A DNA stretch of 64,000 nucleotides from a virus. Below, in pieces: positions 3,442 to 19,341 of the stretch. The notes below the pieces were generated by a model. That model worked only from the letters and a program-made list of their open reading frames with translations. It was not told the origin of the DNA and searched no databases. A program made the position numbers and the translations under genes. How positions within the stretch are numbered: position 1 is the stretch's first letter; each line of letters starts with the position of its first letter. The stretch lies in the IMG/VR virus record IMGVR_UViG_3300010373_000002, positions 1 through 64,000 of that record; one strand, written 5' to 3'.

Positions 3442-3469
3442 TTGACAAGTGGCTTTTGTCTGGTAGAAT
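3442..3469 (+). promoter_or_regulatory. sigma70-type promoter (extended -10)
   Basis: TTGACA-16 nt-TAGAAT with TG at the extended position, upstream of AAGGAG RBS. Confidence 0.7.
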
Positions 3470-3791: not shown

Positions 3792-3792
3792 G

Positions 3793-4122
3793 ATGAAGTT
3801 CGAAGACTTCAAAATCGGCAAGACGCGGTTCAATTACAAAAACGGGCATACTGAATACATCTGCCACGCTATCGGCGACAGAATCATTGTCGGGTCTGAA
3901 AAGGGCGAAGACGTTCTTTGTGTATCGTTCAACGAAAAAGACTTTGATCATTGCAAGGAATGTGGATACTGGAAAGAAGCCGAGGGGAACACTCCGGTCC
4001 CTATCTCTTATTTCCGCAACCTGTTGGCGATCGAGAAATGCGCTAAAGAGTTCGCCGCCGAGATCAATCGGATCGAAACGAGAGAATTGAGAGAAATAAT
4101 CGAACAGTCGGCATCATGTTGA
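3793..4122 (+). CDS. Hypothetical protein, paralog A (MKFEDF.GKTRF)
   Basis: Shares MKFEDF..GKTRF...EY.CHAIGD...VSFNE.DF..C with next gene. Confidence 0.8.
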   Translation: MKFEDFKIGKTRFNYKNGHTEYICHAIGDRIIVGSEKGEDVLCVSFNEKDFDHCKECGYWKEAEGNTPVPISYFRNLLAIEKCAKEFAAEINRIETRELREIIEQSASC

Positions 4123-4132
4123 GGAGAAACAA

Positions 4133-4483
4133 GTGAAATTCGAAGACTTCGTACTCGGCAAGACTCGGTTCCGCTGGCTTGATGACCTCGAAGAATACCT
4201 CTGCCACGCGATCGGCGATAAAGTGGTCGTTGGCTTAGAGATGGACGGAGACCCCGAAGAGGTTATCGTGGTTTCGTTTAATGAAGACGACTTTGGTAAC
4301 TGTGAAGAAGTTTCCTCTTCCGATAAATCCGGTGACGGTTTAGCGAAAATGACATATGCCCGCCGCGACGAACTAGTTTGCGCCGAGATTCGAGATCGAG
4401 AACTTGCCGAAGCCGTCCTCGATCTGCTCGGAGACAGCCGCGTCCAGAACATCCGGTCAAGGGCCGAGGAAATCGTCGAGTGA
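4133..4483 (+). CDS. Hypothetical protein, paralog B
   Basis: GAGGAG RBS, GTG start; tandem paralog of 3793..4122. Confidence 0.8.
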   Translation: MKFEDFVLGKTRFRWLDDLEEYLCHAIGDKVVVGLEMDGDPEEVIVVSFNEDDFGNCEEVSSSDKSGDGLAKMTYARRDELVCAEIRDRELAEAVLDLLGDSRVQNIRSRAEEIVE

Positions 4484-4761
4484 TCCACGAAGATTTGATT
4501 TGGATCGACACGCCAGACGAGGACGGCAACTCGTTCATTGAAGCCGTGTCCTTCCATGTGAACAGCAAGACGAAAGAGTCGTTTCGTTGGCGGGTGACTC
4601 CGGTGATAATCGAGAACAAGGTCCGCTGGTCCGTGGACGAGTCGGACTTGATCACGGCCAACAACCAAGAGCCGCCCTTCCGTCGCGAGGAAGCCGCCAA
4701 GGATTTCTGTCAGAGACGTGAGAATGAACTGATTGAGAAACTTCAGAGAGGTGAGACATGA
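4480..4761 (+). CDS. W...CQ repeat-domain protein (1 copy)
   Basis: GTG overlapping upstream TGA; LIW...GNS...WRV...NK..W...AK.FCQ..E. Confidence 0.8.
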   Translation: MIHEDLIWIDTPDEDGNSFIEAVSFHVNSKTKESFRWRVTPVIIENKVRWSVDESDLITANNQEPPFRREEAAKDFCQRRENELIEKLQRGET

Positions 4762-5393
4762 AGACGATCGACGTGAAAGTGACTATGTTTGAGGCAGGCG
4801 ACTGGGTGCGGTTCAAGGCGAACACGCTCAGGAAAGGTTCCTACGAAGTCAAGACGATCGACCCTGCCGCTTCCGATCGAGAGCATCACCAATACTTGTG
4901 GCTCGACGGCGGAAAAAATGGCGGACCATTCTTGGCTAGATCGGATGAAGTGGAATTGTCTCGTCCTCCTGAGCCAAACAAAGAATCAATCAAAGATGTA
5001 GTCAAAGTCGGCGATCTTCTTTATGCCGGCGGCCAAACCTTTTTTGCCGTCCCCGCCGATGCCGCTCTCGGGAATCCCAAGAAGCTTTCCGAGGTTCGCC
5101 GGCTACTCAACGCCTTGATGACGGCGGAGTGGTACAAAATCGTCCCGTTACACGGCTTCAAAGCCACCAAAGAAGATGTCGCGAACTTCAAAGTCGGCCA
5201 ATTCGAACGTGGCTATTTCTTTGAAGGGAACTCTCCGCACAATGCCATACAAAACTGTCTCTTAAAGGGTACTTGCGACATCACAGAGTTCGTCTCTGTC
5301 TACAAGAGAGTCGATTCCGCAGATGACTCTTGGATAGATTTTGTCGGCGTCTTCCGGGTTGCCGTGTCGATTGTCGCCGATCGTTTATTTTAA
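4758..5393 (+). CDS. Hypothetical protein (SH3-like N-terminus)
   Basis: GAGG RBS; FEAGDWVRFK. Confidence 0.75.
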   Translation: MKTIDVKVTMFEAGDWVRFKANTLRKGSYEVKTIDPAASDREHHQYLWLDGGKNGGPFLARSDEVELSRPPEPNKESIKDVVKVGDLLYAGGQTFFAVPADAALGNPKKLSEVRRLLNALMTAEWYKIVPLHGFKATKEDVANFKVGQFERGYFFEGNSPHNAIQNCLLKGTCDITEFVSVYKRVDSADDSWIDFVGVFRVAVSIVADRLF

Positions 5394-5402
5394 GGACTCA
5401 CC

Positions 5403-5999
5403 ATGAAGCCCGTCAGCAAAATCGCTCGCGAACCCGTCGAGCAAACCCATATCGAGAAGGCGATCGGCCTACTCCGCCTTAATATCGTCAAGGCTATCGA
5501 GAAGCACGGCAACGACTCGTACTATAACCGCCACGAGATCATCGGCTCTCTCAAGGAAGAGTTCGATGAGGTCTGCCACGCCAAGAAGCCGAAGACGGAA
5601 GAGAAGACAATCCTCTTCGTCCGCGAGTTGCTGGACGTGGCTACGGTGGCTCTATGGGCCGTCGCCGGCATCGTCGATGACGCGGACTCGGCAAGTAAAG
5701 TCATCGGCGAACCGGAAGAAGAAAAAGGTTTTCGGCAGTTGGATTGGATCGACGAACTCGACGAGATTAACAACAATTCGTCTTACTGGGCGGCGTCATC
5801 CAAGAAGGGAACCGACGGCAGTCTCCTGTATTGGGACGTCTCGCCGCAAGGCATCGGCAATAAGTTGTTCTGGACGTTCGTAGATTCCAGTCCGGAACTC
5901 ACTAAAGGGTACGCTCGCGTTGACTGGGAAACCCCCGAGGCGTCCAAGCATTTTTGCCAATCATTAGAGAACGACATTCTCAGAAGTTCGAGTCATTAG
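5403..5999 (+). CDS. MazG-like helical domain fused to W...CQ domain
   Basis: HE..G.LKEEFDEV...ELLDVA.VA (MazG-type ExxE/ExxD); C-term LDW...W.V...NK..W...FCQ..E. Confidence 0.7.
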   Translation: MKPVSKIAREPVEQTHIEKAIGLLRLNIVKAIEKHGNDSYYNRHEIIGSLKEEFDEVCHAKKPKTEEKTILFVRELLDVATVALWAVAGIVDDADSASKVIGEPEEEKGFRQLDWIDELDEINNNSSYWAASSKKGTDGSLLYWDVSPQGIGNKLFWTFVDSSPELTKGYARVDWETPEASKHFCQSLENDILRSSSH

Positions 6000-6040
6000 A
6001 AAGAACTGGCGACACAAGAGTACGAATCGAAAGGTAGAAT

Positions 6041-6604
6041 ATGAGCGAGCATCGACTTGAGTGGAAAGAGTGCCTTGATGGCGACGACAACTCTTATTTC
6101 GAGGCTCCATCGTCGCTCAGTTTCGAAGGGCGTAGGCTTTTCTGGCGGGTCGATCAGCAATTGATCGGGAACAAGATCGTCTGGTTTCTTGACGATTCCG
6201 AAGAATACCTCGGCGACCTAGGCGAAGACAATCCTCACGATTCCGAGGAATCCGCGAAAGCGGCTTGCCAGGCCCACGAGGATCAATTCGCCGTCGATAA
6301 TCTGACGGAGGTTCCGACTCAAAGACGGATCGTCGGCGAACCCGGCCCGCTGGTATGGGAATCAAAGGCGACCGGCTTCGGGGTTACAGTCTACCGCGCC
6401 GATTCTCGCGTGGAAATCGTTGGTCTCGGTTGTTCTCATGGATACCTCCTTGTTCCTCTTATGAAAAACAAAAAGGTAGTTTGGTTGCTGGCCGGCGAAG
6501 ACGAGGAGTTCGGAGCAGTAGACGAAGCTGTATCGTTCTGTCAAGCCAAAGAAGACGCTTTAGTCGCAAGCGTGAAAGCGGAGGAGGCGAATACCAATGA
6601 GTGA
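6041..6604 (+). CDS. W...CQ repeat-domain protein (2 copies)
   Basis: Two internal units ending ACQAHE and FCQAKE. Confidence 0.85.
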   Translation: MSEHRLEWKECLDGDDNSYFEAPSSLSFEGRRLFWRVDQQLIGNKIVWFLDDSEEYLGDLGEDNPHDSEESAKAACQAHEDQFAVDNLTEVPTQRRIVGEPGPLVWESKATGFGVTVYRADSRVEIVGLGCSHGYLLVPLMKNKKVVWLLAGEDEEFGAVDEAVSFCQAKEDALVASVKAEEANTNE

Positions 6605-7130
6605 GCAACTTCAGTGGGAAGAAGATTTAGACTATAGGAAGAACTCCAAGCACGAAGCCGATTCGTGCGTTCTAGATCAAGGGAAGCCGCTTCGGTGGCG
6701 CGTTACGCAGAGCCACACCTACAACAAGATTTCTTGGTATATCGAGGATTCCGACGAAGAACTTGGACCGTCCCACTTTAACGAGGAATTCGATTCCGCC
6801 GATACCGCCAAATCTAAATGTCAACGCTTGGAAGATGGGATTATCCACCTAAGAACAGCGTGGAAAGAGAAGGTAGCCAAAGGGAGTCTCTACTGGAAGT
6901 CGTCGAAGGGTTTATACGGGAATACTCAGTATGAGGCCGAGTCTTCAATACCCGACAGAGATGGGTGTCGGATCGGTTGGCGTGTCCATCAGTGGCTCAG
7001 TAAAGACAAGGTTGCCTGGAGGGTGGGTTGCTTGAACCAAGAGTATCCCACCCATGAGGCCGCGATGGCTTTCTGTCAAGCCGACGAAGACAAAATCGTC
7101 GCCGCAGCGAAAGCGATGGAGGAGAAATGA
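6597..7130 (+). CDS. W...CQ repeat-domain protein (2 copies)
   Basis: Two internal units ending KCQRLE and FCQADE; GGAGG upstream. Confidence 0.85.
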   Translation: MSEQLQWEEDLDYRKNSKHEADSCVLDQGKPLRWRVTQSHTYNKISWYIEDSDEELGPSHFNEEFDSADTAKSKCQRLEDGIIHLRTAWKEKVAKGSLYWKSSKGLYGNTQYEAESSIPDRDGCRIGWRVHQWLSKDKVAWRVGCLNQEYPTHEAAMAFCQADEDKIVAAAKAMEEK

Positions 7131-7546
7131 AAATCATCGTTGAATCCGCCGACCTCAAAATCGAGCCTTATCGTGGCTCCGGTCCCGGCGGCCGGCATCG
7201 CAATACAACGATGTCCGGCGTTCGGATTACTCATCTCCCGACCGGAATCATGGTTAAGTGCTGTGACGACTCCTGCCAGCATCGCAACAAAGCCCAAGCG
7301 TTTGTCCAGCTTCGCTCGGCCCTCGCCAGACACTACAGGGGCCTTCAAGAGCGATCGGCGACGGAGCGGTACGAAGGCAAGCCTCAGGTCGCCTTCTCTT
7401 CTCAGATTCGAACCTACAGGCTAGTGGACGAAGAGAAGGTTGTCGATCATCGGACGGGAGTCGCCCTGGCGGCTCATGCCGTTCTCAGAGGCAAGATCGA
7501 CCCATTCTTGCGGGCGATGTTGGCGAAGAATCAAGGCTCATACTAA
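7127..7546 (+). CDS. Truncated class I peptide chain release factor-like protein, GGQ changed to GGR
   Basis: SGPGGRHRN...VRITHLPTGI.V.C....QH.NK..A...L...SQIRTY...V.DHRTG. Confidence 0.9.
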   Translation: MKIIVESADLKIEPYRGSGPGGRHRNTTMSGVRITHLPTGIMVKCCDDSCQHRNKAQAFVQLRSALARHYRGLQERSATERYEGKPQVAFSSQIRTYRLVDEEKVVDHRTGVALAAHAVLRGKIDPFLRAMLAKNQGSY

Positions 7547-8768
7547 TTTTATACCAGATTTGAGGGACAGAATAAAGAGCAATGGCACACTACACGTACA
7601 GATACAGGATCGAACCCACGAAGGAGCAGAAGGCGAAACTTGCCTCTCACTTCGGGTCTGTACGTTATGTGTACAACTACTTTTTGGCTCAAAGAAAGAA
7701 TCTCTATCTGGAGTCGAAGCAAGGAACTTCCTACTGCAAACAGGCTTCAGAACTGACAGTCTTGAAGAAAGAATTGACATGGCTCAAAGAGACGAACAGC
7801 CAGGCCCTTCAATATTCGCTCAAGTGCTTGGAAGCCGCCTACAACAACTTCTTTGCCAAGAGAGCGAAGTTCCCGAAGTTCCATGCTCGGAAAGGCAAGC
7901 AATCCTTCACCGCTCCTCAGAGTGTCGGAGTGAAGGAAGGCGTTCTCACGCTTCCGAAGTTCAAAGAAGGGATCAAACTCCGATACCATCGCCCACTTGA
8001 AGGCGAGATCGTCAAAGCGACCATCACGAAGAATGCAGCGGGTCAATACTTCGCCAACATCCTTGTGGAGAAGAACATTGAGCCGTTGCCTGTGCGGGAT
8101 GCAAAAGTTGGAATCGATCTCGGCTTGAAGACGTTGGCGACTTGCTCTGATGGGCAGGTATACGAGAACATTCGTCCTTACAAGACTTTGCAGCGTAGAC
8201 TTCGTTTGCTCCAGAAAGCCGTAAGTCGGAAGAAAGATAAGACCTCCCAGAACCGAGGGAAAGCCAAGCATCGCCTAGCAGTGCTCCACAACAAGATTGC
8301 CAACATCCGCAATGACTATCTGCATAAGGTTTCACGCTCTATCGTTAACGAGAACCAAGTTATCGTGATGGAAACCCTGAATGTCAAAGGCATGATGGCT
8401 AACCACTGTTTGGCAAAGAGTGTTGCCGATGTCAGTTTTAACGAGTTTGTTCGACAATTGAAGTATAAGGCGGCATGGGCAGGACGAAACTTCCTGCAAA
8501 TCGATAGATGGTTTCCATCGTCAAAGACATGCTCCGAATGCGGATTCATTGTTGACAAACTGCCGTTGGACATCAGGGAATGGACATGCCCGAGTTGCAA
8601 AGTCGAGCATGACCGTGATTACAACGCCTCAGTGAATATTCTTAGAGAAGGACTCAGAACCGTAGGAACTACGGGGATAGCCTATGGACTTGATGTAAGA
8701 CTTTCAGCGATGGAAGCGATCAAGGGTGAAGTAGGAAGCCTCTGCCCTTTAGGGCAGGGGTAGTTCAC
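7542..8768 (+). mobile_element. IS200/IS605-family tnpB-only (IS1341-like) element
   Basis: tnpB plus right-end hairpin CCTCTGCCC-TTTA-GGGCAGGGG and TAGTTCAC terminus at 8768; left boundary approximate; no tnpA. Confidence 0.8.
7582..8763 (+). CDS. tnpB: RNA-guided endonuclease TnpB, full length
   Basis: YRYRIEPT HTH; RuvC GIDLG / VMETL / HDRDYNA; Zn ribbon CSEC...CPSC. Confidence 0.95.
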   Translation: MAHYTYRYRIEPTKEQKAKLASHFGSVRYVYNYFLAQRKNLYLESKQGTSYCKQASELTVLKKELTWLKETNSQALQYSLKCLEAAYNNFFAKRAKFPKFHARKGKQSFTAPQSVGVKEGVLTLPKFKEGIKLRYHRPLEGEIVKATITKNAAGQYFANILVEKNIEPLPVRDAKVGIDLGLKTLATCSDGQVYENIRPYKTLQRRLRLLQKAVSRKKDKTSQNRGKAKHRLAVLHNKIANIRNDYLHKVSRSIVNENQVIVMETLNVKGMMANHCLAKSVADVSFNEFVRQLKYKAAWAGRNFLQIDRWFPSSKTCSECGFIVDKLPLDIREWTCPSCKVEHDRDYNASVNILREGLRTVGTTGIAYGLDVRLSAMEAIKGEVGSLCPLGQG

Positions 8769-8785
8769 ACTAATTCGTGTCAAAT
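8620..8785 (+). ncRNA. Putative omegaRNA (reRNA) scaffold plus guide of tnpB
   Basis: Known TnpB arrangement overlapping the 3' end of the ORF and right end; 5' boundary uncertain. Confidence 0.5.
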
Positions 8786-8808
8786 TAGTATAACGGACGA
8801 AAACCTAT

Positions 8809-9030
8809 ATGAAATATCAGGTTGCTCCGGTGATTCATGGCGTGGTTTCGGTCGAATTCGCCGTCGAGTGTAATTCCGTTTCTCCTTATGAAGCCGTTCG
8901 AAAGGTGCATGAGGGAGGACGGAATTGGGGTTCAAGGGAATGGGCGGTCCTACAAGATGGAGATTGGTGGGTTTACACGGCGGAAACAGTTATCACTGTT
9001 AGCGGAGTCAAACTAGGGAGACTCAAATGA
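8809..9030 (+). CDS. Hypothetical protein
   Basis: ORF coupled by ATGA overlap to next gene. Confidence 0.6.
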   Translation: MKYQVAPVIHGVVSVEFAVECNSVSPYEAVRKVHEGGRNWGSREWAVLQDGDWWVYTAETVITVSGVKLGRLK

Positions 9031-9302
9031 ACAAGTTCGATTACAAAGGTTGGGACTTGTGCGAGGCGATCGACTCCTTAATGGCTTACGATCACGGTTG
9101 CACCGACAGCGGCGTTAAAGATGAAGCCATGAGATACGCCGTCTTGAATTATTTGCGCGGCCTTGAAAAGACGGAACGCCACGAGCAAGAGAAGAAGATC
9201 GGCCTTTACTTTTTTAACGAAGAGAGATTCAAACAAGGCTATGGGTTGTCTGACTTCGTAGGGTTGATCGACTGGTTTCGAGATCAAGGGTACGATTTGT
9301 AG
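9027..9302 (+). CDS. Hypothetical protein
   Basis: GGAG RBS; last base of TAG coincides with the second IS end. Confidence 0.75.
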   Translation: MNKFDYKGWDLCEAIDSLMAYDHGCTDSGVKDEAMRYAVLNYLRGLEKTERHEQEKKIGLYFFNEERFKQGYGLSDFVGLIDWFRDQGYDL

Positions 9303-10243
9303 TCAACGACCATCGCCTAAAGGCGACGGATTGCATCCTGTAATAACCGACCGTCGTCGATCGGCGTTCCGGTTGCCATAGGCGAGTTGACGATCGCCCT
9401 TGCCCGGATATTCCGGGCCGCATTGAGGTCGGCATGTTCGGCGAAACCACACGACACACACCGGAATTCCGATTGGCTCTTGCGGTTCGCTTTGGCGACG
9501 TGTCCACAAGCCGAGCATGTTCGAGATGTATTGCGCGGATCAACCGTCGTCACGAATACCCCGGCGAGTTTCGCCTTGTATTCCACAAAGGACCGAAGTT
9601 GAAAGAAAGACCAGCTTCCCATTCTCGCCCGTTGACTCTTCTTGAACGGTCCCCTGTCTCGGATACCCTTGAGGTCTTCAAGAGCGATCCCACGGCAGGT
9701 GTCTTGAGCGTCTTTAACGAGCGACTTGGAAATTTGGTGATTGATGTCTTTCCGGTAGCGCGACTCCTTTTGTCGCATGTGAACGATCGCCTTGTGACGC
9801 GCCCGGCGCTTACGTCGGCTTGCCCCGTGAGTCTTCTTCCCTATCGCCCGGCGACGGCTCATCGCCGTGATGCGTTTCGCTTCGATAGCCGAGTTCGAAA
9901 ACGACTTGCCATCCGAAGTCACGACGATATTGCAGACGCCGAGATCGACACCGATGAAGTCTGTGGACGGGACCGGCGTTCCGTCTGGAACGTCCACCGT
10001 AACTATCAAGAACCACTTACCGTCTTTGCGGAGAACGAGGTCGGATTGCCCCTTTCGAAGCGAGAACCGGTCGGCTTGGTATTTACCCATAACGAACGGT
10101 ACGACAACCCGGCCGTTGAGCGTCGAGATGCTTACTCGGTCAATCCCTTTGAAGCCGATGTTTTTCCCCATCGAATAAGGAACGGCGGCGTGCTTGCGGA
10201 AATTGGGCCGGATCGACTTGTTTCGCTTGTACGCTTCGCACAC
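9302..10243 (-). pseudogene. tnpB: 5'-truncated tnpB / IS200-IS605 remnant (ORF 9317..10243)
   Basis: RuvC GVDLG / ALEDL / HADLNAA and CSAC...CVSC present; begins mid-protein (CEAYKR) with no RBS; right end CCGTCGCC-TTTA-GGCGATGG...TTGAC at 9329-9302. Confidence 0.85.
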
Positions 10244-10249
10244 GATAGG

Positions 10250-10606
10250 ATGCGATCTATCGGATATTGTCCTTCTCCGATTTTCCCTACTGATGAGGAA
10301 CTAAAATACGAGGCTTCTTCCTATCTTGAGTACAAACTTCGGTACATGGTCGCCTCTGTTCGTCGCGTTGGCAACAAGTATCAATGGAAAGCGTTCGGAG
10401 ACGGCTTCGATGAATCCGGTGTTTGCGATGATCAAGTCTCGGCGCAGCGGCAGGCCGAGGACGCTCTGCTGAGGATCGAAGAGAAAGAACAGGAAGCGTA
10501 TCGCGCAAGATACAAGGAAGAGAATCGTTGTTATGTGGAAATCAAGAGTCCTCCCCGTCCAATTTGCTACCTTACGACTCAGGGACTTCCTGTTTATTAT
10601 TTCTGA
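10250..10606 (+). CDS. Hypothetical protein (start uncertain, possibly truncated)
   Basis: 3' part of the 9434..10606 frame lying outside tnpB. Confidence 0.55.
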   Translation: MRSIGYCPSPIFPTDEELKYEASSYLEYKLRYMVASVRRVGNKYQWKAFGDGFDESGVCDDQVSAQRQAEDALLRIEEKEQEAYRARYKEENRCYVEIKSPPRPICYLTTQGLPVYYF

Positions 10607-10623
10607 TCGACACAAAGGAAGCG

Positions 10624-11775
10624 ATGAGATACCTCTCTTTGTTCAGCGGCATCGAAGCCGCGTCCCTGGCGTGGGAACCGCTCGGTTGGGAAGCGGTCGC
10701 GTTTGCCGAGGTAGACCCGTTCGCTTCCGCCGTGCTCGCCCACCGTTATCCGAGCGTGCCGAACCTTGGCGACGTGTGCGGTGTCGGCCCGGAACAGTTG
10801 GATGCCTTGGGCAAAATAGACGTGGTTATATTCGGCTCGCCTTGTACTGATTTTAGTCTGGCCGGCAAAAAAGAAGGGATCAAAGATAAGGATGGAAATC
10901 GGACTAGAAGCGGTCTATTTGAAGAAGCTGTCAGAATTGTGCGCCTCGCCGCCGAACGAAACGGACTGCGTTGGTTCATTATGGAAAACGTACCGGGGAT
11001 GCTCTCCACAAACGGAGGGAGTGACTTTTGCGAGGTTATTCGCGAGATTTGTGGATGTACCTTTCCCGTGCCGAGCAATGGATGGCGCGGAAGCGGCGTC
11101 GTCGCTGGAGAAGACGGCGGATGGTCGCTCGCGTGGCGAACTCTTGACGCTAAATACTTCGGAGTCCCCCAACAGAGACGTCGAGTCTTCCTTGTCGGAC
11201 ATCTTGGACACTGGACCAATCCCGCAGCGGTACTTTTTGTCGGCCAAAGCCTGTCGCGGAATTCTTCGAAGGGTGGAAAAACGGGGAAGGATTATACGCG
11301 AGGACTTAAAGGCGGCACTAGAGGCGGCGGCGGGCAATCCTCAAGCGATGGACAAGAGCCTTTGATTGCTCACTCCGTAAGAACTCAAGATCGGCGCGTC
11401 GGCAACACGACGTTCGCGATCGGCGAGGACGCGGTTTGTTTGCGAGGCGAAGGCCACGGCGGCGGACATGCGGCGATCGCCTATCAATGCCAAGGAACCA
11501 ACGTGGGGCCGATGGGAACGATCCGCTCCGGCAACGGCAACTCGACGGGTGGTGTTCCGTTTTTAACTCACGAAGACACAAAGGCGGTTCGGCGACTCCT
11601 TCCGGCCGAGACGGAAAGACTCCAAGGGATGCCGACTGGCCACACGGACATCCCCTACGACAAAGCCGGCAATTCTCCCGACACGCAACGTTATCGCGCC
11701 ATAGGCAACTCGTTCGCCGTTCCCGTCGTGCGATGGCTCGGCAAAAGGCTTCAAGAAGTGATGGAGGTAGAATGA
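10624..11775 (+). CDS. dcm: DNA (cytosine-5)-methyltransferase
   Basis: LSLFSGI (I), GSPCTDFS (IV), ENV (VI), QQRRRVF (VIII), RRL.P.E.ERLQG (IX), GNS (X); AAGGA RBS before ATG 10624. Confidence 0.95.
   Translation: MRYLSLFSGIEAASLAWEPLGWEAVAFAEVDPFASAVLAHRYPSVPNLGDVCGVGPEQLDALGKIDVVIFGSPCTDFSLAGKKEGIKDKDGNRTRSGLFEEAVRIVRLAAERNGLRWFIMENVPGMLSTNGGSDFCEVIREICGCTFPVPSNGWRGSGVVAGEDGGWSLAWRTLDAKYFGVPQQRRRVFLVGHLGHWTNPAAVLFVGQSLSRNSSKGGKTGKDYTRGLKGGTRGGGGQSSSDGQEPLIAHSVRTQDRRVGNTTFAIGEDAVCLRGEGHGGGHAAIAYQCQGTNVGPMGTIRSGNGNSTGGVPFLTHEDTKAVRRLLPAETERLQGMPTGHTDIPYDKAGNSPDTQRYRAIGNSFAVPVVRWLGKRLQEVMEVE
10892..11365 (+). CDS. Nested +1-frame ORF resembling M.EcoHK31I beta-type polypeptide (start uncertain)
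   Basis: GELLTLNTSESP...SSLSDILDTG..PQRYFLSAKACRGILRR.EKRG motif. Confidence 0.6.
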   Translation: MEIGLEAVYLKKLSELCASPPNETDCVGSLWKTYRGCSPQTEGVTFARLFARFVDVPFPCRAMDGAEAASSLEKTADGRSRGELLTLNTSESPNRDVESSLSDILDTGPIPQRYFLSAKACRGILRRVEKRGRIIREDLKAALEAAAGNPQAMDKSL

Positions 11776-12031
11776 GAATATTAAAGAGAATCAAGGAAAT
11801 TCTATGTTGGGTGGCAGCTATCTCGTTGGTTGGTCTACTGATCTATATTGTTTCGACCGAGCCAGAGCCAGTCAGCGCTTACCAACAAGGAATCCTTGAC
11901 AGAGAAAAGGCTTACATTTACGCGACAGAATCCGCAAAACTGAAGGCTTATCGTGACGCCGGAGTCGATCTTTCGGCGTGCAAGTGCGGCTGTTCGGCGA
12001 AAACATCTAACAAGTGATGGAGGTAGAATGA
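11756..12031 (+). repeat. 20-bp direct repeat AAGTGATGGAGGTAGAATGA at 11756-11775 and 12012-12031
   Basis: Exact match; each copy contains RBS and ATG. Confidence 0.9.
11772..12017 (+). CDS. Membrane-anchored hypothetical protein
   Basis: ATGA overlap, GGAGG RBS; TM helix ILCWVAAISLVGLLIYIV. Confidence 0.75.
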   Translation: MRILKRIKEILCWVAAISLVGLLIYIVSTEPEPVSAYQQGILDREKAYIYATESAKLKAYRDAGVDLSACKCGCSAKTSNK

Positions 12032-12306
12032 ACGTCAATGTCCCATTCCCGGAACTAGAGGATGATTGCCCTATTTGTTATTCGTATGCAAAGGGCGACC
12101 ATATCACCAAAAGCGAGTGCGAATATTGCGGCAATGACCGAGTTATTCTCACCAGCGAAGGCGAGGCGATTATTGAATTGGTCAAGCGTCATCTCCCAAG
12201 GTTGTTGCGGGAACTCAAGGAAGAGGGGAAAATGAAACATCCGGTGGCTCTACCGGAACCGCTCCCGCCGAAATACGAGGCTGAAAACCATGCGAATCGA
12301 CGTTGA
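12028..12306 (+). CDS. Anti-TRAP (RtpA)-like Zn-binding protein
   Basis: LEDDCPIC...CEYCGNDRVILTSEGEAIIELVKRHL. Confidence 0.6.
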   Translation: MNVNVPFPELEDDCPICYSYAKGDHITKSECEYCGNDRVILTSEGEAIIELVKRHLPRLLRELKEEGKMKHPVALPEPLPPKYEAENHANRR

Positions 12307-12367
12307 GCGGATCATGGCTATCGTGGACGAAGGCGACACATTCAACTAAAAATAATAGGGGTCGAAC

Positions 12368-12595
12368 GTGGACGAACTGACGCTCCCGACGCTTGAGAAG
12401 GTTTGTGGTAAATGTGGAGGTTGCGGAGGAGAATTCGACAGGCGGGATTGGTTTCCTTGTTGTGAGTGCAAAGGTAAAGGCTATTTCCCAACGGAGGCCG
12501 GACGCCGTATTCTGGTGCTCATGCGTCACAATCTACCGGCGATGTCGCGCGACGATGGAAATGTGCTCGAAATATTAAGCAACTTAGGGAATTGA
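12368..12595 (+). CDS. Anti-TRAP (RtpA)-like Zn-binding protein
   Basis: LEKVCGKCGGCG...CCECKGKGYFPTEAGRRILVLMRHNL. Confidence 0.6.
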   Translation: MDELTLPTLEKVCGKCGGCGGEFDRRDWFPCCECKGKGYFPTEAGRRILVLMRHNLPAMSRDDGNVLEILSNLGN

Positions 12596-12598
12596 GCA

Positions 12599-12769
12599 AT
12601 GCGAATTGACGTGGAACGGATCATCGCCATCGTGGACGAACTCGACGATCACATTGACATTGTTTGCGGACTAATGGAAGTACAGGAACATCTTCTTCGG
12701 CAACAACGGCGCATAAAAAAAGACGCAACCTCGGCGAGTCCCGGTTGGGATGCCGAAGCCGCGTCTTGA
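12599..12769 (+). CDS. Small hypothetical protein MRIDVERIIAIVDE... (56 aa, below ORF-track cutoff)
   Basis: Translated by hand; AGGG upstream; N-terminus duplicated at 12290. Confidence 0.6.
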   Translation: MRIDVERIIAIVDELDDHIDIVCGLMEVQEHLLRQQRRIKKDATSASPGWDAEAAS

Positions 12770-12782
12770 TCCGTTCCAGTAA

Positions 12783-12977
12783 TCAGATCGAGTCGATTTG
12801 CTCTTGCATGGAATCCATTTTCGACCGCATCTCCTTCATCTCGGCCAGGACGATCTCAAGGCTCGCCATCGTTTGCTCTATCGCGACCCTCTGCCAGTCC
12901 GACCCCGGATGAAACCGAGAGTCGGTCAATGTCTTGCGGAGGTCGTGCAGCTTCTCGGTCATCTTTTCTAAGCTCAT
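12783..12977 (-). CDS. Small coiled-coil protein
   Basis: Last gene of the minus operon. Confidence 0.6.
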   Translation of the reverse strand: MSLEKMTEKLHDLRKTLTDSRFHPGSDWQRVAIEQTMASLEIVLAEMKEMRSKMDSMQEQIDSI

Positions 12978-13270
12978 GGGATTATTTCTTGTTGTTGGTT
13001 CTCAGGACACATATCTGATTCTTCCGTCACGAAGCACTCCGGTGGCAACCGACACCAGACGCACTCCCAAACAAATCCTACAAACAATTTCATGTCCTTC
13101 TCGTCGGGTTCGTGTCCCGTGGCGGCGTCGATCATCGCTTCTAGCGGCGACCGCTTGTCCACGCCGAGATTGCACTCGAACAAACGATTAAACTCGGCGA
13201 CCAACTCTTGGTTCCTGGCACAATAGAGCACTAAAGCTTTGAAGTCGTCGAGCATTCCATTAGGTTCCAC
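12974..13270 (-). CDS. Hypothetical protein (LEAMIDAATG...FV.ECVW..L)
   Basis: GGGAG RBS and GTG start at 13270. Confidence 0.7.
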   Translation of the reverse strand: MEPNGMLDDFKALVLYCARNQELVAEFNRLFECNLGVDKRSPLEAMIDAATGHEPDEKDMKLFVGFVWECVWCRLPPECFVTEESDMCPENQQQEIIP

Positions 13271-13271
13271 T

Positions 13272-13835
13272 TTATGCTCCCACCGCAAGAGGTTCTAACA
13301 AGCCTTCCCCGAATACCTTCTCCGCAGGCTGTAGCAACTCCCTGAAGTCCGCGACCTGTCGCTCCGTCTCATTATCGTAACATCCTTTGTAACTCGCCGC
13401 CGAGGCCAATGCCGCCGCCGAGTAGACGGGGATGTTGTGCCGAGTGTTCTGGAGGCAGTAGGACGCCGGCAGAGACCAAAAGTTGCGGGTGCGAGGGTCG
13501 GCGAAGTAGACCTTGGCGAAATCCTCCGTCTTCTTTTTCTTCTTCGCCCTGGCTACCTTGATCGCCTTCCGCTGCATCTCCACGTCTTCCTTCATCTGCT
13601 CGGCACGGTCTAGCGTGCGTGACGCGGCACGGCAAGCGCACTCGAACGCAACCTCGGGAGACAAGCGGTCGGGTCGAGTCAGAAACCAAACCCGGTCGAT
13701 AGCGGGGATCGGCAGGTCCAGAATCTCGTTGAGATCGAGGGACTTCCGATCGCCCCACAGTAACTCGATTCGCTCGCGAGTGTACTCTGCTCCGGGTTCC
13801 AAGAGTACGGCCTGGCTCACGGTGAGACCTTTCAA
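13272..13835 (-). CDS. Hypothetical protein
   Basis: Operonic ORF with overlapping junctions. Confidence 0.7.
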   Translation of the reverse strand: MKGLTVSQAVLLEPGAEYTRERIELLWGDRKSLDLNEILDLPIPAIDRVWFLTRPDRLSPEVAFECACRAASRTLDRAEQMKEDVEMQRKAIKVARAKKKKKTEDFAKVYFADPRTRNFWSLPASYCLQNTRHNIPVYSAAALASAASYKGCYDNETERQVADFRELLQPAEKVFGEGLLEPLAVGA

Positions 13836-14218
13836 GAGACTGCCTTTTTCATCGCTTCTCGCTCTCGTTCCTGCATCGAAGAAGACGCATCGGAGAGTTC
13901 AAGAGCCGATTGCCTTGTTCTTTTGTAGGCTTCTTCGACGGTAATTGACGGGACTTCGATGAGATCGTAGCGGTCGAACTCCCTACAATCTCGGACCCGA
14001 ACAAAAACCCTGTCTTTGAGGTAGCTAGATTGATCCGAGAAGGCGACGTCAACCGTCTGGTTGCGATACTGTTTAAGTTCACGCCTCAGCTTAGCTATCT
14101 CGGCGTAAATATCCCGCAAATGCCATCCGACAGGAGACGTTCTGCTTGGAACTTCCCTTTGGATATAGTCCGGCCAGAACTCGCCGTCGAACAGTTCCCC
14201 GTTGTCGTTGATGGTCAT
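13832..14218 (-). CDS. Hypothetical protein
   Basis: ATGA coupling. Confidence 0.7.
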   Translation of the reverse strand: MTINDNGELFDGEFWPDYIQREVPSRTSPVGWHLRDIYAEIAKLRRELKQYRNQTVDVAFSDQSSYLKDRVFVRVRDCREFDRYDLIEVPSITVEEAYKRTRQSALELSDASSSMQEREREAMKKAVS

Positions 14219-14583
14219 TCTGATTCGGCCTTTCTAAGCTCGTTGATTCTGTCGGTCGCTTTGCCGATTTGTTCCGCCAGGGACACAGATTGACTTTCGG
14301 CTCTCTCCATGTCGTATTTCAGCCGAGTTTTCGTCGCAAGAACCTTGATTGACTGGAGGGTTTTCTCCTCAAGGAGTTCTTCCGTGGCTTCAAGTTCCGT
14401 CTCAAAAGCTTCCTTTACGTCAAACCATTTAGATTCGTCTAAATCCTCGATGACTCGGAAATAGTTCTTTTCGTTGATTTGGCAATGTTCCAAGATTTCG
14501 ACCTTCTCGACTCTCGCCGGCGGGCCTCCGCGAACATACCTTGTAACCCAAACGAAGTCGCCGACTTTTGGTAGGTGGATCAT
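14215..14583 (-). CDS. SH3-like plus coiled-coil protein, paralog A
   Basis: P.VGDFVWV...F.T.LEA.E. Confidence 0.75.
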   Translation of the reverse strand: MIHLPKVGDFVWVTRYVRGGPPARVEKVEILEHCQINEKNYFRVIEDLDESKWFDVKEAFETELEATEELLEEKTLQSIKVLATKTRLKYDMERAESQSVSLAEQIGKATDRINELRKAESE

Positions 14584-14936
14584 CGTTTTTCCTCTGTCTT
14601 TCTAAGTGTGGCGATTCTCAAAGAAACTTCGTCGATCGCTTCTTTCGTCGAACGATGAGCCGATGTGACTCTCAAGAGGGAACTATTCAGATTGTGAATC
14701 TCGTAAAGGCGACGATCATTAAGAGCGGCTATTTCATTAACATAATCCTCAAGAGCCTCAAGTCGAGTTGGGAAAATATCCTTAGTCTCAAGCCAAAGTT
14801 CGCCGCACTCACCGATCACCGTGAAACGTGACGGCTGATCAACGAACTCTGATTGGCGGATGATTTCGGCTTTCACGGCATCATGTTTGTTCCCCATAAC
14901 CCAAACGAAGTCGCCGATTTCCGGGTCGTTGATCAT
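14580..14936 (-). CDS. SH3-like plus coiled-coil protein, paralog B
   Basis: GGAGG RBS, ATG 14936; PEIGDFVWV...FPTRLEALE. Confidence 0.75.
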   Translation of the reverse strand: MINDPEIGDFVWVMGNKHDAVKAEIIRQSEFVDQPSRFTVIGECGELWLETKDIFPTRLEALEDYVNEIAALNDRRLYEIHNLNSSLLRVTSAHRSTKEAIDEVSLRIATLRKTEEKR

Positions 14937-14955
14937 TCGTCGCCTCCCTGTGGTG

Positions 14956-15291
14956 TCAGATCGAGTCGAGCAAGGCTTTGGCTTCGTCGGAAAAACCGGC
15001 GACGAACTCATTCCAGAGCTTTTTGTTTGTTTCCTTCTCGTCGGTTTCCCTGAATCGCCTCAACATTTCGTACATCTTCGGCGCAGCGGTGATGAGGCGA
15101 GCGTTGGATTCCATGTCGCCGGATGTTTTCATGATCAAGCCTCTCTCGTACTCGTATTTCCACGAATACGTCGGCTCGCCGACAGTGCAAACAAGAGGTT
15201 CAAGATGGACGTATTGGGCATCGCTTGGAGTCGGCGCCCGAACGAAATTTCCGGGAAAACACTTCCACTCGCCCGGCGTGAAGTTGAGCAT
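14956..15291 (-). CDS. Conserved phage protein (TPG.W...NARLI.AAP.M)
   Basis: Common phage motif; AGGAGG RBS. Confidence 0.85.
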   Translation of the reverse strand: MLNFTPGEWKCFPGNFVRAPTPSDAQYVHLEPLVCTVGEPTYSWKYEYERGLIMKTSGDMESNARLITAAPKMYEMLRRFRETDEKETNKKLWNEFVAGFSDEAKALLDSI

Positions 15292-15303
15292 GGTTCTCCT
15301 CCT

Positions 15304-15495
15304 TTACCAGTTTGAGCGAAATTGCTCTTTGACCCACGAATCGGAGTGATGTTCCTTGGCGATATTTTCTAATACCGCAACTTGTTTCTTGAGGTCGCCG
15401 ATTTGACTCTTGAGCGATGCTTCAAGTCTGTCTATAGTATTGCCGATCATCGCTGCTATTTCTGCTCGGCCAAGAGCGTCATCATGCTTGTGCAT
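15304..15495 (-). CDS. Small hypothetical protein
   Basis: GGAG RBS. Confidence 0.6.
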   Translation of the reverse strand: MHKHDDALGRAEIAAMIGNTIDRLEASLKSQIGDLKKQVAVLENIAKEHHSDSWVKEQFRSNW

Positions 15496-15496
15496 A

Positions 15497-15880
15497 TTAT
15501 CTCCATGTTCTCGGTAGTTCTTCGATCCATTCGGCCCCGTCGTCGTCTTTGATCGTCCATCCTTCTAAAGTATCGAAGGGAATATCAACCACTTTCACGA
15601 TGTCGAGTTCATGTGGGAAACCTTCGGCCTCTTTTCCTAAAGATTCGATGACGCCGACAAACCTGGGGTCGGAGCGAAGGGCTTTGTCGTAGTAGTTTGT
15701 GATGTAAAAAATATCCTGAGAGGTCCACGGACCACCACCACGAAAATCGGCTTCGTTCGATTGATTTGGTTCGCCATACGGATCGAACCCTTTCTTTGTG
15801 TACCCGAGTTCGACGAGCATATCGACGGCCTTTCGGCTCAACTCGAATCCGCCTGGCGTAGTGTGGATGACGACTTTCAC
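15497..15880 (-). CDS. Conserved phage protein, paralog A (KVVI...GGF.LS...R.DP)
   Basis: GAGG RBS, GTG 15880; ends EWI.E..RTWR. Confidence 0.85.
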   Translation of the reverse strand: MKVVIHTTPGGFELSRKAVDMLVELGYTKKGFDPYGEPNQSNEADFRGGGPWTSQDIFYITNYYDKALRSDPRFVGVIESLGKEAEGFPHELDIVKVVDIPFDTLEGWTIKDDDGAEWIEELPRTWR

Positions 15881-16170
15881 GAGTCTTCGCTTCCTCTCCA
15901 TGTTCGGTGGTCTTCCGCGATCCATTCTTTGCCTTCGCTTTCTTCGATCCTCCATCCCCAGATGGAATCAAATGGGATGTCGATCACTTCAAAACTCTCG
16001 TAGTCGGAGGCTTGTTTGCCAAGTTGTTCGACCACCTGGACCAATCTCGGATCGCAACGGAAGGAATTGGAGTCGCAATCCTTGAGGTTGACCCCGAGAG
16101 CCAAGAGTTTATTCTTGGCGACTTCGGAAAGCGCGAAACCTCCAAAGCGAGCGTTAATGACGACTTTCAT
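15877..16170 (-). CDS. Conserved phage protein, paralog B
   Basis: GGAGG RBS, ATG 16170; same motifs as paralog A. Confidence 0.85.
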   Translation of the reverse strand: MKVVINARFGGFALSEVAKNKLLALGVNLKDCDSNSFRCDPRLVQVVEQLGKQASDYESFEVIDIPFDSIWGWRIEESEGKEWIAEDHRTWRGSEDS

Positions 16171-16679
16171 GCCGCCTCCTCCATTTCCGCCCAAAGTTTC
16201 TCGATAGCCTTCAGGTCATACCAGCGGCCGTACAAGCGATCTTGGTCCAAGCCCTTGACCTGACTGTCGATCGCCATGACCGGCCTCACCTTGAGCCGCG
16301 AGGAGCCTTTACGGACATCCTCGATCGTACACCAAAACTTACTTACCGACCTGCCGCAGTCGAGCGTGCCGGTCAATAGAACCTCGTCGCCGGCCGAGTA
16401 GAACGCCGCCAGCATCGACCCTCCAAAGCTGCCATGTTCCGCCAAAGAGATCGCCTCGATATCGTAGGTGCGGATAAACTGGGTTGCGCCATAGCCATCG
16501 CTGAATTCTAACTGCGTCGTCACGCCTTGCAGGTAGGGCCAAACCTTCATGAGATTCCGCTCTTTATTGATGCCGTGAATGATACAGCGGTGATTATGAA
16601 CCCGTAGGCCCCTTGGCGAGTACAGAGTCCCCGTGATCCTCACGTCGTCGAGCGGCCCATAGTCGGAGATGTCAATCAC
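16167..16679 (-). CDS. Hypothetical protein with internal duplication
   Basis: Two units D.V..TGTL...C.I...KV.P...YD..AI. Confidence 0.75.
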   Translation of the reverse strand: MIDISDYGPLDDVRITGTLYSPRGLRVHNHRCIIHGINKERNLMKVWPYLQGVTTQLEFSDGYGATQFIRTYDIEAISLAEHGSFGGSMLAAFYSAGDEVLLTGTLDCGRSVSKFWCTIEDVRKGSSRLKVRPVMAIDSQVKGLDQDRLYGRWYDLKAIEKLWAEMEEAA

Positions 16680-16876
16680 AGTTTAACCTCTTTCCAACCG
16701 CCTCTCGTTTCAGTCACTCGGACCTTGCCGAGATACTTTTTCTTGGGAGATTTCTTGGGGTCTCCGTACCAAGGGGAAGAAACGCAAAGCATCGCTTGAT
16801 CTTTAGAGTCAAAGCGAACCGTTGTCGGCTTCTCGCCCGGAGTCGTTATTCTCACTACATACATGATGCTTGCCAT
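16676..16876 (-). CDS. Small basic hypothetical protein
   Basis: GGAG RBS. Confidence 0.6.
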   Translation of the reverse strand: MASIMYVVRITTPGEKPTTVRFDSKDQAMLCVSSPWYGDPKKSPKKKYLGKVRVTETRGGWKEVKL

Positions 16877-17084
16877 TGTTCTCCGCTTTCCTTTTCTCGA
16901 TTACGCTGTCTAGTTCATAAATCGAATCCCACCTCCAGACCTCTCCCTTGACGTGGAGCCTGTTGCCGCAGCGACGACAATCCACGGATGACCCTTCGTG
17001 GTCGCCGCCGCCGCAGTCAAGGTGGTTCGTCAGAGCGGCTTTGCAGCACTTCGAGATGCCGCCGATCGCCAGGTTCTTAGGCAA
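16809..17084 (-). CDS. Zn-ribbon hypothetical protein
   Basis: SKCC...CRRCG; AAGGAG RBS. Confidence 0.6.
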   Translation of the reverse strand: MPKNLAIGGISKCCKAALTNHLDCGGGDHEGSSVDCRRCGNRLHVKGEVWRWDSIYELDSVIEKRKAENNGKHHVCSENNDSGREADNGSL

Positions 17085-17210
17085 CCTTGTCTCCTTCGGG
17101 GTCCATATCCCATTTCGCCATATCCTTGCGGTCCCGGATCGCCTCGATCGCCATCAGTGTCGCCAAGAAGATCATGCCGAGGCCCATGCCGATCAAAAAG
17201 TCAACGGAGA

Positions 17211-18275
17211 TCATTGCTGTCCTTTCCCTTGGTTGAATTCGCCGAACGAGATGGTCGGCCTTGCCGGGTAAGAGTTCTCAAGCCATTGACAGTAGGATCG
17301 TGCGGAACCGGCGGTCCCGAAGTGGCGGATGACGTCCTCGGGGCACACAGTAAGATAGGCATGTGATCCATCGATTCCCCATTTCTTTACATTCTCGACC
17401 AGCCTCGGCGTCACCCTCCAAGCCATATTGGTAATAGATATACGGTTAATATGATTAGACCATGCGATAAAGTGGTGATTCCCAAAAGTATCGGTGCAAT
17501 TAAACCATTCTAATTCCGGCTTCTTCGGCGTGGCCGGAGGGATGGTTGCCGCCGGCGGCTCGTCTAAGCCGTCAGAAAGTGCTTTCCTGTAATCTTTCGG
17601 AAGCGAGTATCCCCATAGATTGTTCTTCGGAACATCAACGTGGCATCCCAGTTGAAACAGTAACGATTCCGCCTCCTCTCTGGTTCTGAAACCAAGGGCA
17701 TCAAGTGAGCATCGACCCCTTTTGTCGTGGGTTGTGATGCAGAGTTCGAATGGAGAGCCTGGCAAGTGCGGCGAATAATAAATGAACGCTTCCTTAATGT
17801 TGGCTCCCAAGTGAGGCGTCGTTGATTTCCCCGCTTGCTCGGCGAGCCGCTTTTCGAGTTCAGCGATCTTGGCGTCGCGCTCGACTACCTTCTCTTGCAG
17901 TTGGTCGCGCTCGGCCTCGCGCGTAAGGACCTTGAGGGTCAGTTCCCGTTCGCGCTCGAATAGATTGGCGTCAAGTTCGGCCTGGAGGTCGGCGATCACG
18001 TCATTCATCTCTGCTTCCGCGTTCATCTTCGCCACCAGTTCGTCTTCTCTTCGTTGGCATACCTGTTTGACTTGATCGGAATCGGAGTAAGTTTCGGTTC
18101 CCTTTGGGACCAGATCACGGTGCGACTTCTCGTTCGTGTAGAGCGGATATCCAGGCTTGTCGGCCATATCTACTCGGTACAACTTGCCGTCCAGCGACGA
18201 ATACGCCGCCGAGAACCAGTTACCGTTCGCCTCTATCCGGGATTCCCAAACGAGGACATTGTGCGGGACATTCAT
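17211..18275 (-). CDS. W...CQ domain - coiled coil - W...CQ domain protein
   Basis: LVW...GN...VCQRREDEL; central heptads; LEW...GN...WRVTP..EN..KW...YCQWLE. Confidence 0.85.
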   Translation of the reverse strand: MNVPHNVLVWESRIEANGNWFSAAYSSLDGKLYRVDMADKPGYPLYTNEKSHRDLVPKGTETYSDSDQVKQVCQRREDELVAKMNAEAEMNDVIADLQAELDANLFERERELTLKVLTREAERDQLQEKVVERDAKIAELEKRLAEQAGKSTTPHLGANIKEAFIYYSPHLPGSPFELCITTHDKRGRCSLDALGFRTREEAESLLFQLGCHVDVPKNNLWGYSLPKDYRKALSDGLDEPPAATIPPATPKKPELEWFNCTDTFGNHHFIAWSNHINRISITNMAWRVTPRLVENVKKWGIDGSHAYLTVCPEDVIRHFGTAGSARSYCQWLENSYPARPTISFGEFNQGKGQQ

Positions 18276-19312: not shown

Positions 19313-19341
19313 AGTATACTCAATACAGAATACAGTGTCAA
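19313..19341 (-). promoter_or_regulatory. Near-consensus sigma70 promoter
   Basis: TTGACA-17 nt-TATACT on the minus strand. Confidence 0.85.

Follow-up and report, generated by a model that had tools for sequence, protein, structure and literature searches.

The first 64,000 nucleotides of the virus record IMGVR_UViG_3300010373_000002 (hereafter, the window) repeatedly encode a domain of about 85 amino acids, which raises the questions of whether these copies form one protein family and what such a family might do. The domain was found to be hosted by a temperate phage of 113 kb, in which nine diverged copies are distributed over six genes.

Copies of the domain and the genes that carry them

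The eight copies in five genes that had been listed in a preliminary description of the window were all found in place, in stand-alone, tandem, and fused forms (Table 1), and the modular character ascribed to the domain was thereby confirmed. Pairwise identity between the window copies was 16–41%. Each of the eight was recovered by a leave-one-out profile (E 1e-21 to 5e-7), and all of them were also matched by a profile that drew solely on 62 outside proteins (E 1.6e-25 to 1.5e-6); no other sequence of the window scored better than E 0.5. Because both kinds of profile score all eight copies, the similarity among them is not due to chance. Beyond the window there is a ninth copy, followed 0.3 kb downstream by an HTH-like ORF and the integrase. 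W7, C75, Q76, and E79 are invariant in all eight window copies, as the reported retention of W, CQ, and E implied, but the ninth copy has C-D where the others have C-Q, and CQ is not kept family-wide. Likewise, the copies had been called mostly acidic, which holds for six of the eight (pI 4.2–5.1), the other two being neutral or basic (pI 6.9 and 8.0).

Table 1. Domain copies, domain genes, and associated features (window positions unless marked as genome positions)
Feature	Position	Strand	Description
Sigma-70-like promoter	3442..3469	+	TTGACA, 16 nt, TG-TAGAAT; 11/12 matches; consensus match only
Stand-alone domain protein, 93 aa	4480..4761	+	Outside-only profile E 1.6e-19; pI 4.8
Domain copy	4480-4758	+	Stand-alone gene 4480
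Fusion protein, 198 aa	5403..5999	+	N-terminal helical domain (aa 1-105), then domain 5718-5996
Domain copy	5718-5996	+	C-terminal part of 5403 gene
Tandem doublet, 187 aa	6041..6604	+	Copies 6041-6310 and 6335-6601; profile matches
Domain copy	6041-6310	+	Copy 1, doublet gene 6041
Domain copy	6335-6601	+	Copy 2, doublet gene 6041
Tandem doublet, 177 aa	6597..7130	+	Copies 6597-6860 and 6873-7127; profile matches
Domain copy	6597-6860	+	Copy 1, doublet gene 6597
Domain copy	6873-7127	+	Copy 2, doublet gene 6597
Release-factor-like protein with G-G-R, 139 aa	7127..7546	+	Pfam RF-1 2.5e-25; NCBIfam prfB/prfA partial
Two-ended domain protein, 354 aa	17211..18275	-	Copies 18006-18275 and 17214-17510; profile matches
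Domain copy	18006-18275	-	One end of 17211 gene
Domain copy	17214-17510	-	C-terminal copy, other end of 17211 gene
Sigma-70-like promoter	19313..19341	-	TTGACA, 17 nt, TATACT; 11/12 matches; consensus match only
Ninth domain copy, beyond window	genome 111448-111747	+	Profile E 5e-9

The two operons with domain genes in the window follow the two best sigma-70-like promoters in its first 20 kb, and these consensus matches suggest that the domain genes may be expressed early. The upstream promoter heads a rightward operon (3501–7546) containing four domain genes, and the other heads a leftward operon in which the two-ended domain gene is second. The rightward genes are tightly packed: the GTG start of the 4480 gene overlaps the stop of the preceding gene (GTGA), the 6597 gene overlaps the preceding gene by 8 nt and the following gene by 4 nt, and the release-factor-like gene closes the run. 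The two doublets are 41% identical between their first copies and 33% between their second copies, and the 6597 gene looks like a duplicate of an entire 6041-type doublet gene. Within the window, no function is known for the neighbours of the domain genes.

The 17211 gene had been described as carrying the domain at both ends of a coiled coil. Both terminal copies are present, but the coiled coil is confined to about aa 85–150 (a heptad-rich helical stretch at about 17826–18023, with weak matches to coiled-coil families), and some 100 further residues precede the C-terminal copy. No close relative of this protein was found in IMG/VR.

The MazG-like domain proposed for the N-terminus of the 5403 product was not confirmed. 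No Pfam match was obtained at E ≤ 1 (MazG, MazG-like, PRA-PH, and dGTP_diPhyd_N profiles were sought), a homologue search returned only the query itself, and PF18909, searched across the entire phage, gave a single match at 44667–44906. The sequence contains K-E-E-F-D-E and R-E-L-L-D, in which E-E-x-x-E and E-x-x-D motifs can be picked out by eye. In the AF2 model of the whole product, pLDDT was about 96 for the C-terminal domain; the N-terminus, at about 68, was modelled as a helical bundle (three long helices and one short helix); fold searches with this N-terminal model gave generic helical matches, with no MazG among them.

The family outside the phage

The domain family is real but rare. 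A profile search retrieved 191 clusters at E ≤ 1e-3 among 1.84 billion representatives. Members are mostly stand-alone proteins of 85–100 aa; the 62 stand-alone members had a median pI of 4.28 and a median net charge of −13. Residues kept across the family are W7, D12, N16, A21, S23, R35, W47, D53, E55, L56, A71, and K72; C-Q is the majority state only (C in 46 and Q in 42 of 70 members; E in 26). The tree of the 70 members was largely unresolved.

As had been supposed, the family is not a recognised one: it is absent by name from all protein-family libraries consulted. The five window proteins gave no match to the domain in Pfam, PHROGs, NCBIfam, or PADLOC at E ≤ 1, and the 70 members share no library family. 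A word-indexed protein search returned four members, none of them named, and a cluster look-up returned one "hypothetical protein" and otherwise no informative name. The ESM Atlas gave sub-threshold leads only; no match was obtained when 50,697 GenBank phage records were searched with a typical member by tblastn, or in a metagenome scan with the member P0037, and a related-locus search with eight closer sequences gave one locus. A candidate locus in Gemmatimonadaceae (L011) was rejected, as it shared one chance 8-residue word, had an unrelated translation, and failed the family profile; therefore, the species-genome collection yielded no confirmed match.

Eight other IMG/VR records, four of which are proviruses, carry the domain in one copy each (a relaxed DNA pattern run over the virus records had given 33 matches, including eight true members). 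Five virus records related to the phage by terminase (30–50% identity) carry no copy. This phage has nine copies and each of the eight records has one, so the multiplication is peculiar to this phage and bears out the expansion proposed earlier; that it was a diversifying one is suggested only by the deep divergence of the copies. The idea of a system formed with the GGR release-factor-like gene was not upheld, as the flanking sequences retrieved for the other eight loci contain no relative of that gene.

Predicted fold

The domain was predicted with high confidence to form a five-stranded antiparallel sheet packed on one C-terminal helix, with a pLDDT of 88 using eight sequences (AF2, copy 1 of the 6597 gene) and about 96 using 67 sequences. 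The order of strands and helix was identical in models of two different copies. The best Foldseek match (E 0.63) did not reach the threshold of E ≤ 0.001, and a PDB sequence profile search with the domain returned only antibody noise (E > 1). The best solved structure was 6nuw_C (Z 6.4, rmsd 3.6 Å, 85 aligned; best match at Z 5.5 on a second look), and the weak neighbours at Z 4.5–6.4 were mostly RWD-like domains of Ctf19/Mcm21, Spc24/25, Mad1, and Csm1. All matches fall below Z 8, under which, by the structure tool's own note, a match may mean just a common arrangement.

Fusion partners

The member P0031 has an N-terminal Pfam Tad5 domain (PF25190; 30.8 bits against a cut-off of 27) directly before the domain, the one such case among the 57 fused members scanned. 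Tad5 binds and inhibits ThsB of type I Thoeris (PMC13728456, PMC13402655). The domain is joined in P0058 to a dATP/dGTP pyrophosphohydrolase domain (dGTP_diPhyd_N/phrog_801, 2.2e-26), to which the 5403 N-terminus shows no similarity, and in P0120 to a helix-hairpin-helix. Coiled coils stand alongside the domain in P0050, P0140, and the 17211 gene.

Possible functions of the domain

From these observations, we infer, as a tentative but favoured reading, that the domain is an early-expressed protein-binding module directed against a host protein, possibly as a decoy, and multiplied in this phage. Such a module would be made early in infection or upon prophage induction. In its stand-alone form, it would inhibit a host protein by binding to it, perhaps as a negatively charged decoy; defence proteins and DNA-handling enzymes would be examples of such targets. 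A fused form would keep its partner domain on the same target or pair the partner up. The nine copies in six genes would probably cover several targets. The tandem doublets and the coiled-coil architectures agree with domains acting in pairs, as do the weak structural neighbours, most of which are protein-protein interaction heads borne on coiled coils. Several points weigh against this reading: the link to anti-defence, a role suggested at the outset, has gained one indirect support from a single fusion (Tad5 in P0031); the structural matches all stay below the level that would mean more than a common arrangement; the promoters are consensus matches; two copies are not acidic; and acidity is usual in phage early proteins and is no proof of mimicry. 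A more specific proposal, in which the domain founds a new modular family of phage counter-defence proteins, serving as a reusable acidic binding head on its own, in tandem, or joined to inhibitors and enzymes, and each of the nine versions neutralises a different host defence or DNA-repair protein, is possible but somewhat unlikely.

The same architectures could also arise if the domain were only an oligomerisation or scaffold module that pairs with itself and gathers its partners, with no host target of its own. The many unrelated fusion partners, the tandem doublets, and the placement at coiled-coil ends favour such a module, as does the loss of family-wide residues from the second copy of both doublets (D12 and the S-D-x-E-L loop, together with N16 in the 6041 gene), which resembles pseudo-dimers with one degenerating half. 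However, most members are stand-alone proteins with nothing to gather, and the strong conservation of D12, N16, S23, D53, and E55, which are acidic or polar residues of surface type, suggests a binding site and not merely a dimer interface. We consider a pure scaffold unlikely.

Gene neighbourhoods bear on whether the domain instead regulates the recombination, replication, or lysogeny of the phage itself by binding RecT, an exonuclease, a helicase, or an integrase. Single-copy members directly follow recombination or helicase genes and lie upstream of an integrase on the same strand, which was located a few kb downstream of the domain gene in L019, L034, L042, and L047. However, the 5' neighbours vary by locus (a UvrD-like helicase and an AAA_23 ATPase; a PDDEXK nuclease and RecT; a PolB-type 3'-5' exonuclease), and no single phage partner is conserved across the loci. 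One internal partner would hardly explain nine diverged copies in one phage, and the Tad5 fusion points to the host. An internal regulator is quite improbable. The sponge that had also been raised, here taken as one that sequesters nucleotide immune signals like Tad1, Tad2, or Acb2, is very improbable, as the pockets of sponges, both known and predicted, are deep and positively charged (PMC13728456), at odds with the family's median net charge, and the structure searches matched no sponge, although the domain is a small phage protein that may be oligomeric and has two independent links to nucleotide enzymes (the P0058 fusion and the by-eye motifs of the 5403 gene).

If the domain is a host-directed binding head, its readily spotted signature (L-x-W-x-E-x2-D-x2-D-N-T ... 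W-R ... W ... S-D-x-E-L ... A-K-A-x-C-Q) would offer a new means of finding counter-defence or host-takeover genes in phages and prophages, and the nine diverged versions in this phage would serve as a natural panel for charting what the head can recognise. Ways in which phages assemble inhibitory parts are suggested by the fusions that carry a Thoeris inhibitor domain or a dNTP pyrophosphohydrolase. Should the domain be a pairing module only, it would still be a new, compact, and well-folding domain family that is worth a library name.

Comparison with known systems

Tad5 and the domain are both small phage proteins and are adjacent in P0031, but the domain itself has no Tad5 match, and Tad5 is a fusion partner and not a relative. 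In the WGR domain (PF05406), as in the present domain, about five strands form a sheet and lead into a helix that opens with a motif of the "F-x-S-x-E-E-A" type, and the conserved W-R on a central strand of the present domain recalls W-G-R. WGR structures were weak matches (PARP3 2eoc, Z 4.2, rmsd 4.3, 74 aligned; PARP1 2cr9, Z 3.9), with scores in the noise band and below those of many unrelated folds. The Pfam WGR profile matched none of the five window proteins (E ≤ 1) or the 70 members (E ≤ 0.1), and no WGR domains were found in the 41 Gemmatimonadota genomes in which they were sought.

The best structural neighbours were the RWD/UBC-like heads of Ctf19-Mcm21, Spc24-Spc25, Mad1, and Csm1 (Z up to 6.4, identity 12–13%). 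RWD-type kinetochore heads bind proteins and sit in pairs at coiled-coil ends, an arrangement comparable to that of the 17211 gene, P0050, and P0140. Unlike these heads, the domain model has no N-terminal helix and a single C-terminal helix. The RWD/UBC-like kinetochore proteins are eukaryotic, and the likeness is probably a resemblance without shared membership.

Small acidic early phage inhibitors and DNA mimics include T7 Ocr, T7 gp1.2, T7 gp5.9, lambda Gam, and T4 Arn. None of them matches the domain in sequence, and none does so convincingly in structure, T7 gp1.2 being a weak neighbour (Z 3.4 over 65 aligned residues). The domain's topology of five strands and a C-terminal helix is its own in comparison with these inhibitors, and, unlike them, it is modular, occurring in tandem and in fusions. 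Strong negativity is common to the domain and to DNA mimics of the Ocr, ArdA, Gam, and gp5.9 kind. The domain is also like the acidic inhibitors in its size of about 90 aa and in its early or accessory gene position; lambda gam adjoins recombination genes, and the domain genes of temperate phages are placed alike.

Copies of the domain and family status

Translation of five window genes (4480, 5403, 6041, 6597, and 17211, named by their start coordinates) yielded eight stretches of 85–99 aa that aligned along their whole length, with pairwise identities of 16–41%. Each copy was recovered by a leave-one-out profile (E = 1e-21 to 5e-7). A second profile, made only from 62 outside proteins, also recovered all eight (E = 1.6e-25 to 1.5e-6), a test that is not fully independent because these proteins were originally found with the eight-copy profile; the best other open frame in the window reached an E of 0.58 with this outside-only profile, giving no further window copy. 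The count of eight copies in five genes made from the sequence was thereby borne out, as was their mostly acidic character, with pI values of 4.2–5.1 in six copies and of 6.9 and 8.0 in the other two. A ninth, more diverged copy outside the window was missed by the eight-copy profile and detected with the family profile; an HTH-like ORF and a tyrosine integrase lie 0.3 kb downstream of it.

The domain had not been recognized as a named family, and this was upheld. No match at E ≤ 1 covering the domain was obtained for the five window proteins in Pfam, PHROGs, NCBIfam, or PADLOC, 70 family members scanned singly had no Pfam or PHROG family in common, and a profile search of PDB sequences returned only noise. 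The family is undescribed in these four collections, and its profile maps to no mundane Pfam family, which had been named beforehand as one of two outcomes that would refute the claim. When 1.84 billion representative proteins were searched with a profile, 191 clusters were obtained at E ≤ 1e-3; the long matches P0015, P0092, and P0105 were rejected as repeat-rich surface proteins. True members were mostly metagenomic, stand-alone proteins of 85–100 aa without informative names, and the stand-alone members had a median pI of 4.28 and a median net charge of −13.

The residues conserved across 70 sequences were L5, W7 (70/70), D12 (65/70), N16 (63/70), A21, S23, R35, W47, D53, E55, L56, A71 (67/70), and K72. 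The W, CQ, and E positions said to be kept (W7, C75, Q76, and E79) were invariant in all eight window copies, whereas across the family C75 was found in 46 of 70 sequences and position 76 was Q in 42 and E in 26. CQ is therefore a majority state, fixed in the eight window copies and inessential to the family.

Predicted fold

The first copy of the 6597 gene was modelled by AlphaFold2 with a pLDDT of 88 from an alignment of the eight copies only, and the model consisted of strands at residues 7–11, 17–27, 30–41, 44–50, and 60–65, followed by a helix at 68–87. The 5403 copy, modelled with 67 sequences (pLDDT about 96), had an identical order of elements. A shared fold, the absence of which had been named as the second refuting outcome, thus holds for the two copies modelled. 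Foldseek returned no match at E ≤ 0.001 against PDB and viral models, and a TM of about 0.6 for some uncharacterized phage proteins. In an exhaustive structural alignment, the top neighbor was the RWD-like domain of Ctf19/Mcm21 (Z 6.4, rmsd 3.6 Å, 85 aligned), followed at Z 4–5 by other RWD-like heads, SH2, and WGR domains; as Z 4–6.4 is a "common arrangement" in the aligner's own calibration, these predicted likenesses are taken as resemblance only.

Gene layout and the phage record

The GTGA sequence joins the 4480 gene to the gene before it, and neighboring genes overlap by four bases at 4758, eight at 6597, and four at 7127; thus, the four rightward domain genes are packed tightly into a single run, the last gene of which is the release-factor-like one. 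This run sits behind a sigma-70-like promoter match, and 17211 is the second gene behind a leftward match (table below). As this promoter evidence consists of consensus matches, early expression of the domain genes is what we infer. The gene pair preceding the first domain gene had no family match; it is another small family that has been duplicated within this operon.

Features of the phage record and of proviruses carrying the domain
Feature	Coordinates	Strand	Remarks
Sigma-70-like promoter match	3442–3469	+	11/12 with TG extension; strongest plus-strand match in first 20 kb
Mutually paralogous genes	3793–4122, 4133–4483	+	Just upstream of first domain gene; 46% identity over 78 aa, E = 6e-23
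TnpB-like ORF (IS200/IS605 OrfB-type)	7582–8763	+	By eye; directly after domain-gene operon
TnpB-like ORF (IS200/IS605 OrfB-type)	9317–10243	−	By eye
C5 cytosine methyltransferase-like ORF	10528–11775		By eye; beyond both TnpB-like ORFs
Sigma-70-like promoter match	19341–19313	leftward	Strength equal to 3442–3469 match
536-aa protein	43371–44981	+	Structural-gene region
Its C-terminal dATP/dGTP diphosphohydrolase N-terminal domain	44667–44906		PF18909, 57 bits
Ninth domain copy	111,448–111,747	+	Outside window; family profile E = 5e-9; C-D replaces C-Q
HTH-like ORF	111734–112039
Tyrosine integrase	112,036–113,322		Outside window, right end of record; Phage_integrase, 57 bits
UvrD-ending block	L038:9–4489, L051:2726–7608, L034:2034–3908		Proviruses; precedes single-copy domain gene

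The window takes up the opening 64 kb of an IMG/VR virus record of 113,401 bp, the ends of which carry an exact 123-bp repeat. The integrase lies at the extreme right end, beside the repeat; from the integrase and the repeated ends, the phage is probably temperate, with the start of the window following directly on its right end. The "direct terminal repeat" may be no more than a consequence of a temperate phage having been assembled as a circle or concatemer.

The release-factor-like gene is genuine (RF-1 domain, 2.5e-25). The preliminary description had called four of the domain genes co-operonic with it and spoken of a strong candidate for a novel system; its position in the packed run stood, and no conserved system joining the two was seen, with no relatives of it in the fetched flanks of the eight other loci. 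The MazG-like assignment of the 5403 N-terminus went unconfirmed: E-E-x-x-E and E-x-x-D motifs were seen by eye, a search gave no profile match, no homologues, and no similarity to the N-terminus of family member P0058, and the model was helical, of low confidence, and with generic structural neighbors.

Expansion of the family in this phage

A degenerate DNA pattern of the N-terminal motif retrieved 33 IMG/VR stretches, in eight of which the domain was confirmed by profile. Each of these eight virus records, four of them proviruses, carried exactly one copy. The domain gene directly followed a UvrD-like helicase in L038, L051, and L034 (with an AAA_23 ATPase upstream in the first two); it came after a PDDEXK nuclease and RecT in L047, and after a PolB-type 3'-5' exonuclease in L009/L019. 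An integrase lay 4–7 kb downstream on the same strand in L019, L034, L042, and L047, and the ninth copy of the present phage is placed in the same way relative to its integrase. Thus, the domain usually occurs once, in the recombination/lysogeny arm of a temperate phage genome, and the nine copies in six genes are an expansion of the present phage. In lambda-like phages, this arm also carries small host-directed accessory genes. The copies of the present phage clustered beyond chance on a poorly resolved tree (5 changes, against a mean of 7.7 after shuffling; a value this low arose in 2 of 500 shuffles). The two doublet genes seem to have arisen when a whole doublet was duplicated, with identities of 41% between first copies and 33% between second copies, and with D12 and the S-D-x-E-L loop lost in the second copy of both.

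The conserved block ending in the UvrD-like helicase (64–77% identity between records) also carries, in L038 and L051, a 347–507 aa protein without assigned function and the AAA_23 ATPase. It may represent a module for replication or recombination, or else a defence cassette borne by prophages.

Fusions and proposed function

Scanning of 57 longer members identified an N-terminal Pfam Tad5 domain in P0031 (E = 3.6e-7, 30.8 bits against a cut-off of 27), a dATP/dGTP pyrophosphohydrolase (dGTP_diPhyd_N/phrog_801, 2.2e-26) in P0058, and, by sequence, a helix-hairpin-helix in P0120. N-terminal parts of several members matched PHROGs without known function, P0050 and P0140 contained coiled coils as in the 17211 gene, and P0080 and P0123 were doublets. 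The PF18909 domain of the present phage is the one fused to the acidic domain in P0058, an unrelated metagenomic protein. Tad5 binds ThsB and blocks type I Thoeris, as reported (PMC13728456; PMC13402655), and the P0031 fusion, a single case, is the sole direct tie of the domain to counter-defence.

We tentatively propose that the domain is an early-made, acidic protein-binding head. Alone, it would block a host protein; fused, it would tether or pair its partner domain, with the paralogues each adapted to a different target. In favor of this reading are the negative charge of the domain, the positions of its genes, its fusions to Tad5 and to enzyme domains, the predominance of stand-alone members, and the paired architectures. 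That the domain is a plain pairing or scaffold module, a role to which doublets and coiled-coil members are relevant, seems unlikely. Somewhat less likely again is a role in regulating recombination or integration proteins that the phage itself encodes, the neighbors seen in other records. A nucleotide sponge is highly improbable because the family is acidic and sponges are described with positively charged pockets (PMC13728456). Against the protein-binding head itself stand the weak structural matches and the thin tie to counter-defence. The domain most resembles the small acidic early accessory proteins of phages, which are well known as a kind.
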